A stretch of 9,672 bases of DNA. Source: a virus (taxonomy: Duplodnaviria; Heunggongvirae; Uroviricota; Caudoviricetes). The position numbers and the translations under genes were made by a program. Where the stretch lies: the IMG/VR virus record IMGVR_UViG_2802429253_000010; one strand, 5' to 3'. The notes beneath the pieces are model-generated. The model searched no databases and was not told where the DNA came from. It saw only the letters and a program-made list of their open reading frames with translations. Shown one piece after another: positions 2,585 through 9,672 of the stretch. Every line of letters begins with the position of its first letter. Within the stretch, counting starts at the first letter, position 1.

Positions 2585-2648
2585 AGTTTAATAATCAAAA
2601 CCAAAGAAAGTCAAGAAACAAAACCATCTGTGTTTTAAAATCAAAACA
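2585..2648. promoter_or_regulatory. OR-type immunity switch: operator TGTTTT-N6-AAAACA (2631-2648) plus weaker copies (about 2586-2601, 2610-2625); candidate pR for cro-like gene (-35 TTGACT = complement of 2609-2614, -10 TAAACT = complement of 2585-2590); candidate pRM -10 TAAAAT (2636-2641) directly abutting the cI ATG
   Basis: Palindrome and hexamers read directly; the same 18-bp operator architecture recurs at 3353-3370. No SD upstream of the cI ATG at 2648, suggesting a leaderless cI mRNA as in lambda pRM. Promoter assignments are inference. Confidence 0.5.
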
Positions 2649-3286
2649 TGAGCAAGCAAACAATATCTGAACGCATAACCCAACGTATGCATGCGCTAAA
2701 CCTGAAAGGCAAAGACCTTGTCAATGCCACTGGCGCATCAAAAGGCTCCGTAAGTCAATGGATGAACGGTGGAGGAGCGCCGTCCTCGCGTTACATAAGT
2801 TCACTGGCAAAGATATTGAAAGTAAACGAAAATTGGCTTCTTAATGGAGGAGAGTTAAATACAGGTGATTCGCTTGATCTATCTTTACCGCCGATAAAAA
2901 CGGTTCCGCTACTATCACTTCAGCAGGCAGCAAGCTGGAGTGATTATATGAAAAATTCCTCAATAACCTCTTGTGTGCAGCTTGTCGGAGAAATCCCGGC
3001 CAATACCTTTGCAGTTGTTCTAGAGAGTGACAGTATGTCAACATCTGGTGGGGGAGTTTCCATCCCAAATGGTTCAACAGTTTTTGTTGATCCCGATCGA
3101 ACCGTACAACCAGGAAATATTGTCCTTGCCTTACCCAAAGGGACCACAACACCTGTCATTCGTAAACTGGAGATAGAAGGGCCGGATATTCTTTTAGTCC
3201 CCACGAATCCTCGCTACCCTTCAATTATGCTGGATGATCTATCTTGCATATTGGGCGTATGCTTTAAAATTCAACAAGATATTTAA
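2648..3286 (+). CDS. cI-like prophage repressor: N-terminal HTH (XRE-type) plus C-terminal LexA/S24 peptidase-like domain, 212 aa
   Basis: HTH segment (about aa 10-60); S24 hallmarks seen: Ser in ESDSM (aa 126-130) and Lys in VIRKL (aa 173); divergent to the cro-like gene; operators on both flanks. Confidence 0.85.
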   Translation: MSKQTISERITQRMHALNLKGKDLVNATGASKGSVSQWMNGGGAPSSRYISSLAKILKVNENWLLNGGELNTGDSLDLSLPPIKTVPLLSLQQAASWSDYMKNSSITSCVQLVGEIPANTFAVVLESDSMSTSGGGVSIPNGSTVFVDPDRTVQPGNIVLALPKGTTTPVIRKLEIEGPDILLVPTNPRYPSIMLDDLSCILGVCFKIQQDI

Positions 3287-4112: not shown

Positions 4113-4134
4113 TAGCTAACCAACAAGGCTAATA

Positions 4135-4542
4135 ATGGAATTTAAAGATTTACCAAAAGAAATCCAGACAATTGCTGCAACGACTCTCGGTGATAGTCTG
4201 GTGAAAATTGACCCGGCATACACCAAAAAAGAAACCATCGATAATATGGTTCGTAATGTGCGCAATGCTTTTTCTGGGCTATATGGTTCTGATAATCAAA
4301 AGCAGGAAAGCGACGTTAATGAACGGGTAATTTCTGTTTGCGTGAATGGCCATGTTCTTTCATCAATCAAAACAGAAACAGCAACACTCTTCGATTGCCT
4401 TTGCATTGTACAGAGTCTTGTTGATGCCCTGTTTCGTTCAGTGAATTTAGAAAATGATGCAAATCTGCGAGGGCGCACAATAGCACATCCATATGCACAT
4501 ACTTTAGGCTCGGTGGATATCAAAGATCCCACAAATCTTTAA
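4135..4542 (+). CDS. Hypothetical protein, 135 aa, in an AT-rich block; unknown function (candidate accessory/moron gene)
   Basis: ORF 4135..4542; SD-like AAGG (4124-4127); protein-like composition; lies in an AT-rich segment that I do not recall in the canonical dicB operon. Confidence 0.5.
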   Translation: MEFKDLPKEIQTIAATTLGDSLVKIDPAYTKKETIDNMVRNVRNAFSGLYGSDNQKQESDVNERVISVCVNGHVLSSIKTETATLFDCLCIVQSLVDALFRSVNLENDANLRGRTIAHPYAHTLGSVDIKDPTNL

Positions 4543-4753
4543 TGAAATAGTTAACGCGAATTGTACTTGCTCTTTCAGTTGCTTTCAGAATACGCGTTGA
4601 AACTGCTGGCGGTAATTTGGTATTCCATTTATTAAAATCATGCCCGGGAAAGTACTCTTCGAAAATACTTTTAACTGCAGACTCGCCTATTGAAATGCTG
4701 CTTACCATGCGATTTTGATAAAGGCATTTAGCAATAAGAGTTGATTTTAACAT
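4520..4753 (-). CDS. Hypothetical protein, 77 aa, convergent with and overlapping by 23 bp the 3' end of the 135-aa gene; unknown function
   Basis: ORF 4520..4753 on minus strand; strong SD (AGGAGG, about 4-nt spacer) before the ATG. Caveat: the SD lies in a palindrome (ccctcctgaggg), so it may be coincidental. Confidence 0.4.
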   Translation of the reverse strand: MLKSTLIAKCLYQNRMVSSISIGESAVKSIFEEYFPGHDFNKWNTKLPPAVSTRILKATERASTIRVNYFIKDLWDL

Positions 4754-4789
4754 TCACCCTCCTGAGGGTTGGTAATTAAGGAGTTCTCC

Positions 4790-5086: not shown

Positions 5087-5139
5087 TTTCTGGTGACGTT
5101 TGGCGGTATCAGTTTTACTCCGTGACTGCTCTGCCGCCC
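5087..5139 (+). ncRNA. dicF: DicF small RNA (trans-acting sRNA that inhibits ftsZ translation); exact ends uncertain
   Basis: Sequence tttctggtgacgtttggcggtatcagttttactccgtgactgctctgccgccc followed by TTTTT (5140-5144) matches my recollection of E. coli DicF almost base for base. Context also fits: dicB and ydfD-like genes immediately downstream. Confidence 0.8.
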
Positions 5140-5313: not shown

Positions 5314-5502
5314 ATGGAAACGTTATTACCAAACGTTAATACGTCTGAAGGTTGTTTTGAAATTGGTGTCACTATCAGTAACCCTGTATTTACTGAAGAT
5401 GCCATTAACAAAAGAAAACACGAACGGGAGTTATTAAATAAAATATGCATTCTTTCAATGCTGGCTCGTTTACGTCCGATACAAAAAGGATGCTGGCAAT
5501 GA
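5314..5502 (+). CDS. dicB: DicB, cell-division inhibitor (62 aa)
   Basis: ATG 5314 with SD GAGGA (5302-5306, 7-nt spacer); protein METLLPNVNTSEGCFEIGVTISNPVFTEDAINKRK... matches my recollection of E. coli DicB in sequence, length and position after dicF. Contained in track ORF 5209..5502. Confidence 0.8.
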   Translation: METLLPNVNTSEGCFEIGVTISNPVFTEDAINKRKHERELLNKICILSMLARLRPIQKGCWQ

Positions 5503-5690
5503 ATACAGCATTTGCACTTGTTCTGACAGTTTTTCTTGTTTCCGGAGAGCCAGTTGATATTGCAGTCAGTGTTCACAGGACAATGCAGGAGTGTGTGACT
5601 GCAGCAACCGAACAGAAAATTCCCGGTAACTGTTACCCGGTCGATAAAGTTATTCACCAGGATAATAACGAAATCCCGGCAGGTCTTTAA
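5499..5690 (+). CDS. ydfD: YdfD-like small membrane/lysis protein (63 aa) with N-terminal hydrophobic segment; translationally coupled to dicB (ATGA overlap)
   Basis: ATG 5499 overlaps the dicB stop TGA (5500-5502); SD AAGGA 8 nt upstream; N-terminus MNTAFALVLTVFLVSGEPV is signal-peptide/TM-like; two Cys in the mature part. Contained in track ORF 5445..5690. Size and position match my recollection of Qin ydfD. Confidence 0.7.
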   Translation: MNTAFALVLTVFLVSGEPVDIAVSVHRTMQECVTAATEQKIPGNCYPVDKVIHQDNNEIPAGL

Positions 5691-5782: not shown

Positions 5783-8254
5783 ATGAGTAAAGTCTTTATT
5801 TGCGCCGCCATTCCGGACGAACAGGCAATAAAGGAAGAAGGTGCAGTCGCTGTAGCCACTGCCATTGAAGCCGGTGATGAACGTCGCGCACGCGCAAAAT
5901 TTCACTGGCAATTCCTGGAACATTATCCGGCTGCTCAGGACTGCGCTTATAAATTTCTTGTCTGCGAGGATAAACCCGGTATACCCCGCCCTGCCCTCGA
6001 TTCCTGGGATGCTGAATATATGCAGGAAAACCGCTGGGATGAGGCGTCTGCTTCCTTTGTCCCGGTCGAGACTGAATCCGATCCGATGAACGTCACTTTT
6101 GACAACCTAGCCCCTGAAGTACAGAACGCTGTCATGGTTAAGTTCGACACATGTGAAAACATCACTGTTGATATGGTGATTAGCGCACAGGAATTGTTGC
6201 AGGAAGACATGGCAACATTCGACGGCCATATCGTTGAAGCGTTGATGAAAATGCCAGAAGTTAACGCCATGTATCCGGAGCTTAAGCTGCATGCCATCGG
6301 GTGGGTTAAGCATAAATGTAAGCCTGGTGCCAAATGGCCCGAAATTCAGGCAGAGATGCGCATCTGGAAAAAACGTCGCGAAGGTGAACGCAAGGAAACC
6401 GGAAAATACACGTCTGTTGTTGATCTCGCCCGCGCCAGAGCCAATCAACAGCACACTGAAAATTCAACAGGAAAAATCAACCCGGTCATTGCTGCCACTC
6501 ATCGCGAATACAAGCAGACATGGAAAACACTGGATGACGAACTGGCCTACGCTCTCTGGCCTGGTGATGTGGATGCCGGAAACATTGACGGCAGCATCCA
6601 TCGCTGGGCAAAAAATGAAGTTATCGACAACGACCGCGAAGACTGGAAGCGTATCTCGGCATCAATGCGCAAACAGCCCGATGCCCTTCGCTACGACCGC
6701 CAGACTATTTTTGGCCTTGTCCGTGAACGTCCGATCGACATTCACAAAGACCCTGTGGCACTGAACAAATACATTACTGAATACCTGACTACAAAGGGCG
6801 TGTTTGAAGATGAAGGAAGAAATCAGAGCGCAACTGATACTCTCTCGTCGCCAGTACCAGAAACTGATGCAGTGGAAACGGCAATTCCGGACAACGAAAA
6901 AACCGAATGCAAAGTGGAAGTCGAACCATCTGTAGAGCGTGAGGGGCCGTTCTACTTCCTCTTCACCGACAAGGGTGGCGAAAAATACGGTCGCGCAAAC
7001 AAACTTTCTGGTCTGGATAAGGCACTGGCTGCCGGGGCTACTGAAATCACGAAAGAAGAATATTTCGCCCGCAAAAACGGTACATACTCAGGTTCACAAC
7101 AAAATACTGGTGCATCTGACACGACCGCACAACCAGGGCCGGTAAAAGTTACCGCTGACAAAGTAAACAAAATTATGCAGGCAGCCAATATCAGCCAGCC
7201 TGACGCCGATGAACTGCTTGCAGTATCACGTGGTGAATTTGTTGCAGGGATTAGCGATCCGAATGATCCGAAATGGGTGAAGGGGATTGAAACCCGCGAT
7301 TCTGTGAACCAGAACCAGCAAGAAACGGAACAGAACGACCAGAAAGCGGAACAAAACAGCCCAAATACGCAACAAAACGAGCCAGAAACGAAACAACCTG
7401 AACCAGTAGTGCAACAGGAACCGGAAAAGATCTGCACCGCCTGCGGTCAGAGCGGTGGCGGCAACTGCCCTGATTGTGGTGCGGTGATGGGCGACGCAAC
7501 ATACCAGGAAACATTCGATGACAAGAACCAGGTTGAAGTTCAGGAAGACGATTCGGAGAAAATGGAAGGCGCTGAACATCCACACAAGGAGAATGCTGGC
7601 AGCGCTCAGGACCACGCCAGCGATAGTGAAACTGGCGAGACGGCAGATCCCTTAATTACGATGAACGGTCATCACTTTATCACATCCACCAGCAGGACGT
7701 GTGACCATCTAATGATCGACCTTGAAACCATGGGAAAAAATCCTGAGGCCCCGATTATCTCAATAGGTGCAATATTTTTCGATCCGCAAACCGGAGATAT
7801 GGGACCGGAATTTAGTAAGACTATCGATCTGGAAACTGCTGGCGGAGTCATTGATCGGGACACCATTAAATGGTGGCTTAAGCAATCACGCGAAGCGCAA
7901 TCTGCCATTATGACCGATGAAATCCCGTTAGATGATGCACTGTTACAATTGCGGGAATTTATCGACGAAAACTCCGGTGAGTTTTTTGTTCAGGTCTGGG
8001 GAAATGGAGCCAACTTCGACAACACGATTTTGCGCCGTTCATACGAACGGCAGGGGATCCCCTGCCCGTGGCGCTACTGCAACGATCGCGATGTACGCAC
8101 AATCGTTGAACTGGGGAAAGCCATAGACTTCGATGCCAGAACGGCTATTCCATTCGAAGGTGAGCGCCATAATGCACTTGATGACGCCCGTTACCAGGCA
8201 AAATACGTTTCAGCTATCTGGCAAAAACTGATCCCGAGCCAGGCTGATTTTTAA
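5783..8254 (+). CDS. Large prophage exonuclease-like protein (823 aa): N-terminal region of unknown function, Q/E/N-rich acidic linker, C4 zinc-ribbon motif, C-terminal DnaQ-like DEDDh 3'-5' exonuclease domain
   Basis: ORF with SD GAGGT (5770-5774). Motifs read from translation: CTACGQSGGGNCPDCG (CxxC-x8-CxxC, nt about 7434-7481); Exo I DLETMG (nt about 7700), Exo II-like GNGANFDNT, Exo III HNALDDARYQ (H-x4-D). Occupies the slot of lambda exo / Rac recE just upstream of xis-int. Related proteins are often annotated exodeoxyribonuclease VIII (recollection). Confidence 0.85.
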   Translation: MSKVFICAAIPDEQAIKEEGAVAVATAIEAGDERRARAKFHWQFLEHYPAAQDCAYKFLVCEDKPGIPRPALDSWDAEYMQENRWDEASASFVPVETESDPMNVTFDNLAPEVQNAVMVKFDTCENITVDMVISAQELLQEDMATFDGHIVEALMKMPEVNAMYPELKLHAIGWVKHKCKPGAKWPEIQAEMRIWKKRREGERKETGKYTSVVDLARARANQQHTENSTGKINPVIAATHREYKQTWKTLDDELAYALWPGDVDAGNIDGSIHRWAKNEVIDNDREDWKRISASMRKQPDALRYDRQTIFGLVRERPIDIHKDPVALNKYITEYLTTKGVFEDEGRNQSATDTLSSPVPETDAVETAIPDNEKTECKVEVEPSVEREGPFYFLFTDKGGEKYGRANKLSGLDKALAAGATEITKEEYFARKNGTYSGSQQNTGASDTTAQPGPVKVTADKVNKIMQAANISQPDADELLAVSRGEFVAGISDPNDPKWVKGIETRDSVNQNQQETEQNDQKAEQNSPNTQQNEPETKQPEPVVQQEPEKICTACGQSGGGNCPDCGAVMGDATYQETFDDKNQVEVQEDDSEKMEGAEHPHKENAGSAQDHASDSETGETADPLITMNGHHFITSTSRTCDHLMIDLETMGKNPEAPIISIGAIFFDPQTGDMGPEFSKTIDLETAGGVIDRDTIKWWLKQSREAQSAIMTDEIPLDDALLQLREFIDENSGEFFVQVWGNGANFDNTILRRSYERQGIPCPWRYCNDRDVRTIVELGKAIDFDARTAIPFEGERHNALDDARYQAKYVSAIWQKLIPSQADF

Positions 8255-8315
8255 TGTTCAACCGTCGCCAGTTGTCGTTGGTATTCTGCAACTGGCGCGT
8301 TCCGGAGTGATAGCC

Positions 8316-8585
8316 ATGAGCGAACAGTACCTGATAACGCTCGACGAGTGGAAACCAAAACGGTTCAGTCTCCCAATAACAAACACTACCCTGGTGAAAT
8401 ACGGAAAACTAGGATACATCGTTCCAAGACCACAAAAAATTCGTGGGCGTTGGCTGATAGATCGCCGGGCAGTATTTGTTGGACCTGGTGAAACGGGAAT
8501 TGCGCCGGAAATTCATACTGGCGATGATGATGCACTGAAGGAGATTTTAACTCATGTCACCGAGGCCACGAAAAAACAGCACTGA
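8316..8585 (+). CDS. xis: Excisionase (lambda Xis family), 89 aa
   Basis: Track ORF 8307..8585 starts at GTG; ATG at 8316 has SD GGAG (8303-8306). N-terminus QYLITLDEWKPKR resembles lambda Xis MYLTLQEWNARQRR, and WLIDRRAVFV resembles lambda YLFHESAVKV (from memory). Overlaps the int start by 32 bp as in lambda. Confidence 0.75.
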   Translation: MSEQYLITLDEWKPKRFSLPITNTTLVKYGKLGYIVPRPQKIRGRWLIDRRAVFVGPGETGIAPEIHTGDDDALKEILTHVTEATKKQH

Positions 8586-9672
8586 CGTAACCGGTCTTTA
8601 CGAAAAGTTTGATCGCAGAACTGGCAGGGTTTACTACCAGTATAAAAACCCTGTGACTGGAAAATTTCACGGTCTCGGAACAGACAAAGGCAAAGCAGAA
8701 AAAATCGCTTCCACAGCCAATCAGCGAATAGCTGCAGCAGAAGCTGAATATTTCATGCGCAAAATTGATGAAAGTCCGTCAGCAACAAAACGTCGGGGTA
8801 TCAGATTAAAGGCATGGGTTGATCGATATCTGAAAATACAGGATGCGCGACTGAAAAATGGAGATATTGCAGCTACAACTCACAAAGAAAAAGCCCGAAT
8901 GGCTGCATACCTGGTTTCCCGTCTGGGAAGCCACCCATTGAAAGAACTGGAAGTAAGAGACTTTGCATTAATACTGGATGAGTGGCTGGATAAAGACATG
9001 GTCAGCACAGCGAGAGTAAATCGTGGATTATGGGTTGATATTTATAAAGAAGCACAGCATGCAGGGGAAGTTCCTCCTGGATGGAATCCTCCGGAGGCTA
9101 CCCGTAAACCGATCCCTAAAGTAACCAGAGCCAGACTCACCCTGGAAGACTGGCAAAAAATTTACAATGCAACGCCTGAAAAACACTTTATCCGTAACGC
9201 AATGCTTCTTGCGATTGTAACTGGTCAGCGCCGTGATGACATTTGCCACATGCGTTTTTCAGATGTGTGGAACGAACACTTGCATATCACCCAGGGAAAA
9301 ACCGGAATGCGTCTGGCGTTACCGCTTACACTACGCTGTGATGCCATTGGGATAACGTTAAAAGAAGTTATTGATGGGTGCCGAGACAGAATATTAAGTC
9401 CATATCTAATCCATAGTCGGCACCAGAAACAACCAAAGCCGATGAGTAAAGACAACCTGAGCGACTACTTTGCCAAAGCACGGGATCTAGCTGGGATAAT
9501 TCCACCAGCAGGAAAAACGCCAACCACATTCCACGAACAGCGCTCTTTATCCGAACGGCTATATCGCGCACAGGGGATCGACACTAAAACGTTACTGGGC
9601 CACAAGGTGCAGGCAACAACAGATCGATACAACGACACTCGCGGCCAGGAATGGGTAAAGCTGGTCATTTAG
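8554..9672 (+). CDS. int: Tyrosine site-specific integrase, lambda Int family (372 aa, complete; stop TAG at 9670-9672)
   Basis: Strong resemblance to lambda Int from memory: LAIVTGQRRDDICHMRFSDV vs lambda LAVVTGQRVGDLCEMKWSDI; TFHEQRSLSERLY vs TFHELRSLSARLY; LLGHK...DRYNDTRGQEWVKL vs LLGHK...SQYRDDRGREWDKI. Catalytic Arg, His-x-x-Arg and Tyr are present. SD AAGGAG at 8538-8543. Confidence 0.95.
   Translation: MSPRPRKNSTDVTGLYEKFDRRTGRVYYQYKNPVTGKFHGLGTDKGKAEKIASTANQRIAAAEAEYFMRKIDESPSATKRRGIRLKAWVDRYLKIQDARLKNGDIAATTHKEKARMAAYLVSRLGSHPLKELEVRDFALILDEWLDKDMVSTARVNRGLWVDIYKEAQHAGEVPPGWNPPEATRKPIPKVTRARLTLEDWQKIYNATPEKHFIRNAMLLAIVTGQRRDDICHMRFSDVWNEHLHITQGKTGMRLALPLTLRCDAIGITLKEVIDGCRDRILSPYLIHSRHQKQPKPMSKDNLSDYFAKARDLAGIIPPAGKTPTTFHEQRSLSERLYRAQGIDTKTLLGHKVQATTDRYNDTRGQEWVKLVI

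Follow-up and report, generated by a model that had tools for sequence, protein, structure and literature searches.

An intact YdfE-type prophage protein with a predicted DEDDh exonuclease head on a RecE-like scaffold

The DNA analysed here, called the window hereafter, is a stretch of 9,672 nucleotides (nt) from the virus record IMGVR_UViG_2802429253_000010. It comes from a Qin/mEp460-type lambdoid E. coli prophage, of which it covers the immunity and early-left region. Its longest open reading frame (ORF) encodes a protein of 823 amino acids (aa) and represents ydfE, an E. coli prophage gene, in its intact form; this is the final gene of the dicBF (PL-like) operon. This protein carries a C-terminal DEDDh exonuclease domain, the head, on 626 residues that resemble the non-catalytic part of RecE, the scaffold. 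Nearly the same scaffold occurs in other E. coli proteins with a PD-(D/E)XK nuclease as head, and the annealase gene recT is found with that head only. We consider it probable, with moderate confidence, that the product is a RecE-family early-left-operon protein with an exchanged catalytic head, acting in the lytic phase as a scaffold-tethered 3'-5' DNA exonuclease.

Results

Residues 642–813 of the protein match positions 2–177 of the 177 in the Pfam profile PF16473 (Rv2179c-like; E 4e-67, 225.8 bits against a cut-off of 27). The Exo I, II and III residues D646/E648, D746 and H796/D801 lie in the three motifs listed in Table 1 and align with D7/E9, D119 and H186/D191 of T4 DexA, all five catalytic residues being present. 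When the PDB was searched with the head, DexA (8KEL) was found at E 1.7e-6 with the single sequence and at 3.2e-16 with a profile of 101 sequences; in the profile search, DexA alone among solved structures passed E 0.01, and Rv2179c fell short of it. An AlphaFold2 model of the head built on a diverse alignment had a predicted local distance difference test score (pLDDT) of 88 and a predicted template modelling score (pTM) of 0.84. Foldseek returned DexA (8KEN) as its best match (E 5e-12, TM score 0.73), followed by RNase T, REXO2 and Orn, and none of the 50 best matches was a PD-(D/E)XK nuclease. In the model, the fold is RNase H-like DEDD, not PD-(D/E)XK, and a head of the DEDDh type predicts 3'-5' polarity. 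An earlier note on this DNA, written from the letters and a list of ORFs, had placed an 823-aa ORF at 5783–8254 and read a DnaQ-like DEDDh nuclease at its C-terminus from the motifs DLETMG, FD and HNALDDA, naming a PD-(D/E)XK fold as the finding that would overturn this. The ORF list agrees with the former, and the Pfam match, the DexA matches and the model bear out the latter.

One site of the head deserves separate mention. Residue 766 aligns with DexA W152, a base-stacking residue supplied by the partner subunit (PMC12153337). It sits in an otherwise conserved PWRYxNDRD motif, and only one other position in the entire protein varies more: the 95 close homologues, which are cluster representatives and not independent lineages, have Tyr in 37 cases, His in 36, Ser in 16, Cys in 5 and Thr in 1. 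Stand-alone enterobacterial homologues have mostly Trp at this position, whereas the fused E. coli forms have Tyr, His, Ser or Cys. It is conceivable that this variability could reflect diversifying selection on a substrate contact.

The N-terminal two-thirds of the protein, which the earlier note had left unassigned, prove to be homologous to RecE and YdfE by BLASTP, hhalign, NCBIfam and, on close homologues, Pfam. Judged by this homology, the N-terminal 626 aa are a RecE-like scaffold. BLASTP aligns aa 262–626 with aa 278–592 of K-12 RecE (E 3e-60) at 38% identity overall, and at far higher identity from about aa 470 to 626. The NCBIfam RecE equivalog (PRK09709/NF007259) gives a partial match, 278.5 bits against a cut-off of 1269, which is best at model positions 438–603 and is confined to the non-catalytic part of the protein. 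Pfam PF12684 (DUF3799, PD-(D/E)XK) has no match in the 823-aa protein; it is found in the 900-aa relatives described below, in Gifsy-2 and in HK225. Further upstream, aa 1–256 match the ydfE pseudogene of K-12 Qin at 96% identity over 256 aa. A profile of aa 1–260, with members from E. coli, Klebsiella and Pectobacterium, was compared with a RecE_N profile by hhalign and matched it over 244 columns (aa 14–262; probability 95.4%, E 1.8e-8), a score that may be inflated by one RecE_N profile member with a 20-aa segment near-identical to the query. The comparison with the RecE N-terminus had been proposed as a check in the earlier note, and its outcome is positive. The Pfam families YdfE_N (PF27430) and YdfE_C (PF27432) are assigned to the window protein by proxy, from precomputed matches on proteins 90–97% identical over aa 1–626.

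The Q/E/N-rich linker, the C4 zinc ribbon and the acidic tract seen by the earlier note are all in place, with the positions and compositions given in Table 1. The ribbon is conserved in RecE, where it aligns with CNACGQTGGDNCPDC, and its match to Pfam DZR is weak (E 0.11). In an AlphaFold2 model of aa 1–640, pLDDT was 50–72 for aa 1–260 and below 50 for aa 344–548 and 571–640; the model suggests folded elements at approximately aa 1–65, 140–200 and 280–343 and disorder at aa 344–548 and 571–640. With a mean pLDDT of 42, the model was too poor for a fold search of the scaffold.

A search with aa 1–626 returned E. coli proteins of 900 aa that are 90–95% identical over this region, but end in the PF12684 PD-(D/E)XK domain. 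Their loci read exo(900 aa)-recT-lar-DUF1187-xis-int, and Rac likewise has recT. The blastn alignments of the window with K-12 recE and with two loci of the 900-aa type (L007 and L008) each stop at window position 7656, just ahead of the point where the protein alignment with K-12 RecE stops (RecE aa 592). The shared scaffold (90–95%) and the DNA homology ending at 7656 therefore show a head swap, in which the PD-(D/E)XK nuclease domain and recT were lost together. We refer to the segment to the right of this junction as the DEDDh cassette (Table 1).

The type of head goes with the presence of recT. In five of five inspected loci with a PD-(D/E)XK head, recT lies directly downstream; all 12 inspected loci with a DEDDh head run straight into xis or int, phage Evi being an exception in form, with an unnamed ORF at the xis position and then a mobile element. 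In the window itself, 52 nt without a gene separate the stop codon of the exonuclease gene from the start of xis (8307), and int follows at 8554. Searches by tblastn with three versions of RecT, with lambda Bet, Exo and Gam and with the RecE nuclease domain gave no match in the window or in the complete genomes of the related phages mEp460_ev081, Tritos and PhiR42_1. Neither the ORFs of the window nor the large non-structural ones of mEp460 matched an annealase family in Pfam; the Erf, Sak and Sak4 annealases were looked for through Pfam and record annotation only. The statement in the earlier note that no annealase lies between the exonuclease gene and xis holds, and the three related phages are in line with it. 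Its view that this is unlikely to be a Red-type recombination module also stands, given the DEDDh head and the lack of an annealase, though the locus is closer to RecET than the note had assumed. On present comparisons, the 823-aa protein is an evolutionary variant of RecE, yet it would be unable to work as a Red/RecET-type module.

Of 5426 complete E. coli genomes, 4063 (75%) contain the DEDDh cassette, at 8100 places and with up to 7 per genome. The PD-(D/E)XK head together with recT was found in 1750 E. coli genomes, at 1841 places; the DEDDh-headed form is far commoner. Viable phages that carry the gene at 92–97% identity are mEp460_ev081, Tritos, HannyBb, PhiR42_1 and Evi. An intact ORF of 823–826 aa is kept by at least five phage genome records and by most of the cluster representatives nearest to the window protein. 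The fusion of scaffold and DEDDh head is also present in Citrobacter, Atlantibacter and Kluyvera, with a head identity of 55–62%. Pairwise ratios of nonsynonymous to synonymous substitution rates (dN/dS) were calculated by region over 8–10 copies, leaving out an O26 copy whose N-terminus differs (aa 1–260 are 16% identical). The values were 0.11 for aa 1–260, 0.15 for aa 261–345, 0.33 for aa 346–545, 0.58 for aa 546–626 and 0.22 for the head. The exonuclease gene is under purifying selection, with the linker at aa 546–626 relaxed. Broken copies exist, with frameshifts in PPompW_699 and strain 377323_2f and an insertion sequence (IS) in K-12 ydfE, as expected of decaying prophages.

A GAGG-type ribosome-binding site lies approximately 9 nt ahead of the 823-aa ORF. 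A scan of the 93-nt gap between ydfD and the exonuclease gene showed no promoter-like site on the + strand. A candidate intrinsic terminator in the same gap was rejected, as it is just a weak 5-bp hairpin and the folding is no better than that of shuffled sequence (z = 0.14). The dicBF operon is PL-like and repressed by DicA, and its sole characterised products are DicF, DicB and YdfD (PMC10448788). The ydfE gene of the K-12 Qin prophage is a pseudogene, disrupted by IS2.

Table 1. Features of the 823-aa ORF and of its operon, in window coordinates.
Feature	Position (nt)	Strand	Description or evidence
DicF small RNA (sRNA), upstream in the same operon	5088..5139	+	Rfam RF00039, full length, 76.7 bits against a gathering score of 48
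dicB (5314-5502) and ydfD (5499-5690), immediately upstream	5314..5690	+	ORFs; RefSeq annotation of the closest genome match (L001), 97% identical
823-aa ORF, intact ydfE-type 'exonuclease'	5783..8254	+	ATG start, 823 aa plus stop; longest ORF of the window; ORF list
aa 1-260, YdfE_N region	5783..6562	+	partly folded; remote homologue of the RecE N-terminal (Exonuc_VIII) region
aa 262-626, middle region common with RecE (aa 278-592)	6566..7660	+	helical segment aa 280-343, then largely disordered
Q/N/E-rich low-complexity tract, aa 500-547	7280..7423	+	52% Q+N+E; composition
C4 zinc ribbon CxxC-x7-CxxC, aa 551-565	7433..7477	+	CTACGQSGGGNCPDC; C551, C554, C562, C565
Acidic linker, aa 567-626	7481..7660	+	28% D+E, 5% K+R; ends at the mosaic junction; composition
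Mosaic junction, codon 625	7656..7657	.	DNA homology to all PD-(D/E)XK-headed relatives stops
DEDDh cassette	7657..8298	+	left junction 7656/7657 to the end of mEp460 homology at 8298
DEDDh 3'-5' exonuclease domain (predicted), DexA/Rv2179c-like family, aa 627-823	7661..8251	+	Pfam, PDB profile, AlphaFold2, Foldseek
DLETMG, aa 646-651	7718..7735	+	Exo I motif
NFDN, aa 744-747	8012..8023	+	Exo II motif
Codon 766 (TGC, Cys)	8078..8080	+	aligns with DexA W152; highly variable in close homologues
HNALDDA, aa 796-802	8168..8188	+	Exo III motif
xis (8307-8585) and int (8554-9672)	8307..9672	+	Pfam Exc, Arm-DNA-bind_1, Phage_integrase

Discussion

We hypothesize that the gene would be transcribed from the PL-like dicB promoter once the prophage repressor is inactivated, i.e., in lytic development. 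DexA, RNase T, REXO2 and Orn are dimeric DEDDh enzymes, and the head is probably dimeric as well, like DexA, RNase T and Orn; a DexA dimer has been reported (PMC12153337). We infer that an active head would remove single nucleotides stepwise from free 3'-OH ends, by two-metal catalysis with D646, E648, D746, H796 and D801, and that its most likely substrate is DNA. The scaffold would place the head wherever the same scaffold places RecE. Such an enzyme would leave an annealase no substrate because it would consume 3' ends and make no 3' tails. The loss of recT, together with lar/ralR and rcbA, in the same swap would then be understandable, because the removal of 3' ends cannot feed an annealase. 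By analogy, a candidate role is 3'-end trimming in the host-RecA-dependent repair or replication of phage DNA; the destruction of competing or host DNA is another candidate. Nucleic-acid processing, anti-defence and host takeover had been suggested in the earlier note and are further candidates. Precedents for T4 DexA are the scavenging of host DNA and the trimming of 3' ends in intron homing.

The likeness to RecE (exodeoxyribonuclease VIII of Rac) extends to position, as both genes occupy the slot of the last large early-left gene, upstream of xis-int. The non-catalytic scaffolds are collinear, zinc ribbon included, aa 1–260 are remotely homologous to RecE_N, and the YdfE_N-type RecE proteins of 900 aa are 90–95% identical to the window protein over aa 1–626. 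The differences are in the head, DEDDh and predicted to be 3'-5' in the window protein but PD-(D/E)XK and 5'-3' in RecE, and in recT, lar/ralR and rcbA, which are missing downstream of the window gene. Lambda Red (Exo/Bet/Gam) is likewise made of PL-driven early-left genes at a similar position relative to xis-int; the window, however, has no homologue of Exo, Bet or Gam by tblastn, and the predicted polarity is the opposite, with no annealase.

For the head, the closest known system is T4 DexA (exonuclease A, PDB 8KEL/8KEN), a phage-encoded 3'-5' exonuclease of the DEDDh family and the best structural match. The two are only about 28% identical, and alignment gaps show that loops and helices of DexA are missing from the window head. 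DexA is a stand-alone protein of 227 aa from a virulent phage, whereas the window domain belongs to a temperate phage and forms one protein with a RecE scaffold of 626 aa. Of the DexA residues reported to recognise 5-hydroxymethylcytosine (5hmC), W152 corresponds to C766, and D169 aligns with Ala or Asp depending on the alignment; the S87 column has Pro in the window head. Closer in sequence are the stand-alone '3'-5' exonucleases' of 185–190 aa from enterobacterial prophages, e.g., AGR48394 of phage 1720a-02, which is 60% identical to the head. EcD (HAK9828821.1), of the HREX/EcD type, was compared through published residue descriptions. It belongs to the same domain family and also comes from E. 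coli, but stands alone, with no scaffold; the tetramer-forming D90 of DexA is replaced by Ala in EcD (PMC12153337), whereas the window head keeps it.

The gene as an object is already known. It is annotated in thousands of genomes and represented by Pfam and PHROG families, with PHROG 2082 matching end to end (823/823). Names given by the annotation pipeline PGAP are 'exonuclease', '3'-5' exonuclease' and '3'-5' exoribonuclease', and phage records often label it 'exodeoxyribonuclease VIII' or 'RecE'; these last labels mislead, since RecE has another catalytic domain. Our literature search found no functional study of a YdfE-type protein and no description of the head swap. The value of the present analysis lies in the comparison: nature joins one scaffold, with up to 95% identity, to either of two heads whose polarities are opposite, predicted in one case, and recT accompanies the 5'-3' head only. 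It has been asked since the 1990s what RecE uses its large but dispensable N-terminal two-thirds for, and the two heads amount to a natural experiment on this point. Evidently, the scaffold can do its work without 5'-3' resection and without RecT. It is also relevant that the DEDDh-headed protein is among the most widespread prophage nucleases of E. coli.

Several points weigh against a scaffold-tethered DNA exonuclease of the lytic phase. YdfE is not among the characterised dicBF products, and transcripts reaching ydfE were undetected in K-12, but there the gene is disrupted by IS2 (PMC10448788). The model of aa 1–640, built on a shallow alignment of 27 sequences in two clades, has the low mean confidence given above. 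The function of the RecE scaffold itself has long been unexplained (PMC11611040), and 'tethering' is a placeholder. The namesake of the Pfam family, M. tuberculosis Rv2179c, is named an exoribonuclease in Pfam, and the PGAP name is often '3'-5' exoribonuclease'. Finally, the stand-alone E. coli DexA homologue EcD acts in anti-T4 defence, pointing to a role outside recombination (PMC12153337).

This last point leads to an inter-phage defence nuclease of the HREX/EcD type, in which the head would degrade the DNA of superinfecting phages, e.g., DNA with modified bases, and shield the lysogen or the induced cell. We regard this as unlikely, though worth keeping in mind. EcD degrades 5hmC DNA and protects against T4 (PMC12153337), and DicB, encoded upstream in the operon, is reported to protect against phage infection (PMC6832061). 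A cassette present in three quarters of E. coli genomes, with several copies in some, would suit such a role, and a head that is the most variable part of the protein, with Tyr, His, Ser, Cys or Thr at the W152-aligned site, would fit an arms race. However, the gene stands last in a PL-like operon under repressor control and has no promoter-like site to itself, so it would be silent in a stable lysogen. W152, one of the residues reported to recognise 5hmC in DexA, is not kept: the window protein has Cys at this position, and its relatives have Tyr, His or Ser. D90 is retained, whereas its loss is said to make EcD safe for the host. PADLOC gave no defence-system model, just a generic Cas-associated DEDDh match (E 1.2e-5), and a defence nuclease of this kind leaves no room for a RecE scaffold of 626 aa kept by purifying selection.

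A bolder version of the tethered exonuclease takes the RecE-type scaffold as a portable delivery module. It would bring either of two exchangeable nuclease heads, opposite in polarity, to one kind of DNA end, and the DEDDh form would be no recombination enzyme but an early-lytic, end-erasing weapon or shield. We offer this as a doubtful speculation. If it were true, removal of 3' tails or 3' ends would disable RecA loading, annealase recombination and priming in competitors or the host; alternatively, incoming foreign DNA would be destroyed, with the base-contacting position 766 engaged in an arms race.

That the head is an RNA-directed 3'-5' exoribonuclease, which would trim or turn over operon transcripts such as the DicF precursor or degrade short oligoribonucleotides, seems to us distinctly improbable. 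Besides the family namesake and the PGAP name, this would agree with the nearest structures after DexA, since RNase T, REXO2 and Orn act on RNA or nanoRNA, and with an operon shared with the sRNA DicF, itself excised from a polycistronic transcript (PMC10448788). On the other hand, sequence searches lead to one solved relative only, the DNase DexA, the others, Rv2179c among them, falling short of the E threshold. RNase III and RNase E are credited with the processing of DicF, which takes place in K-12 with a broken ydfE (PMC10448788). The scaffold is common to the DNA exonuclease RecE, and the gene sits in the recombination slot beside xis-int.

A non-functional relic, i.e., a decaying remnant of a RecET module hitch-hiking in defective prophages, is already disfavoured and very improbable indeed: the frameshifted and IS-disrupted copies and the relaxed linker (dN/dS 0.33–0.58) would agree with it, but most close representatives and at least five phage records keep the ORF intact, both folded ends have a dN/dS of 0.11–0.22, the catalytic residues are complete, and the same architecture recurs across four genera.

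Related architectures

The two scaffold and head types also occur in the reverse combination. A chimera at L010 (6001–8418) has a genuine RecE N-terminus (PF06630, Exonuc_VIII) and a DEDDh head 98% identical to that of the window; both scaffold types therefore occur with both heads. Its context is Rac-like (kilR, ydaE, sieB); a DUF4224 gene and int come directly after the chimera, and recT is absent.

In a third architecture, YdfE_N is joined to another C-terminal domain of approximately 300 aa (PHROG 2489/7838; no Pfam or PDB sequence match). It was seen in a Klebsiella-type prophage deposited as Stenotrophomonas phage BUCT708 (L011, 3474–6172) and in Pectobacterium phage ZF40 gp07-gp06 (L012, 3474–6151), with YdfE_N identities to the window protein of 27% (aa 11–377) and 24% (aa 11–303), respectively. 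A Sipho_Gp157 gene always follows, described as 'Mu Gam-like end protection' in the ZF40 record, and there is no recT. The C-terminal domain of these Klebsiella and ZF40 proteins was considered as a Rad52-like annealase from a Rad52-like signature (KKSLTDATKKALSGLGFSGDIFMGLYDN); Pfam, PHROGs and the PDB sequence search gave no support for it.

The family of the head is large, with 11,990 representative clusters at E ≤ 1e-3 and 1523 phage records, and most members are stand-alone proteins of approximately 185 aa. Stand-alone homologues have no constant partner gene. In Vibrio phage K231 (L025, 2953–4801) the homologue is directly upstream of the integrase gene, the same slot as that of the window gene, and in Rhodobacter phage RcRios (L026, 1027–5664) its neighbours are a Cas4-family exonuclease on one side and a DNA polymerase on the other. 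The C-terminal '...SQADF' of the window protein was considered as a beta-clamp-binding motif, after the DnaE motif QADMF, and was rejected: the Gln is not conserved in close homologues, which include NPVDF variants.

Other features of the window

The genes of the window come in the order DUF977, replication initiator, YdaT, Cro, CI, ydfA-B-C, a two-ORF insertion, the DicF sRNA, dicB, ydfD, the exonuclease gene, xis and int, and at least 80% of the window is present at high identity in 113 complete E. coli genomes. The repressor at 2648–3286 is a 212-aa CI with a helix-turn-helix motif and a LexA-like S24 peptidase domain, and is presumably cleavable in the SOS response. K-12 DicA has 135 aa; it is reported to be without the Ala-Gly bond needed for cleavage, and the antirepressor Rem relieves its repression (PMC10448788). 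In L001, the gene corresponding to CI is annotated as just 339 nt. From the differences between CI and DicA, it follows that the immunity type varies while the dicBF-exonuclease operon is conserved.

A block of approximately 630 bp with low G+C content (about 39–42%) lies at 4133–4766, between ydfC and dicF, and is absent there from K-12 Qin. It holds two convergent ORFs that overlap by 23 nt, one at 4135–4542 (+ strand, 135 aa, PHROG 1363) and the other at 4520–4753 (- strand, 77 aa, PHROG 10348), neither with a Pfam or PADLOC match; the block may be a moron or a toxin-antitoxin-like pair. The replication-initiator ORF at 739–1839 (PHROG 3729) contains a tandem codon repeat at approximately 1315–1371, - strand, which encodes (TDKD)n: TDKDTDKDTDKDTDKDTD. 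Read in the reverse frame, this repeat gives a spurious 'IKIQIKIQ' ORF at 1311–1454.

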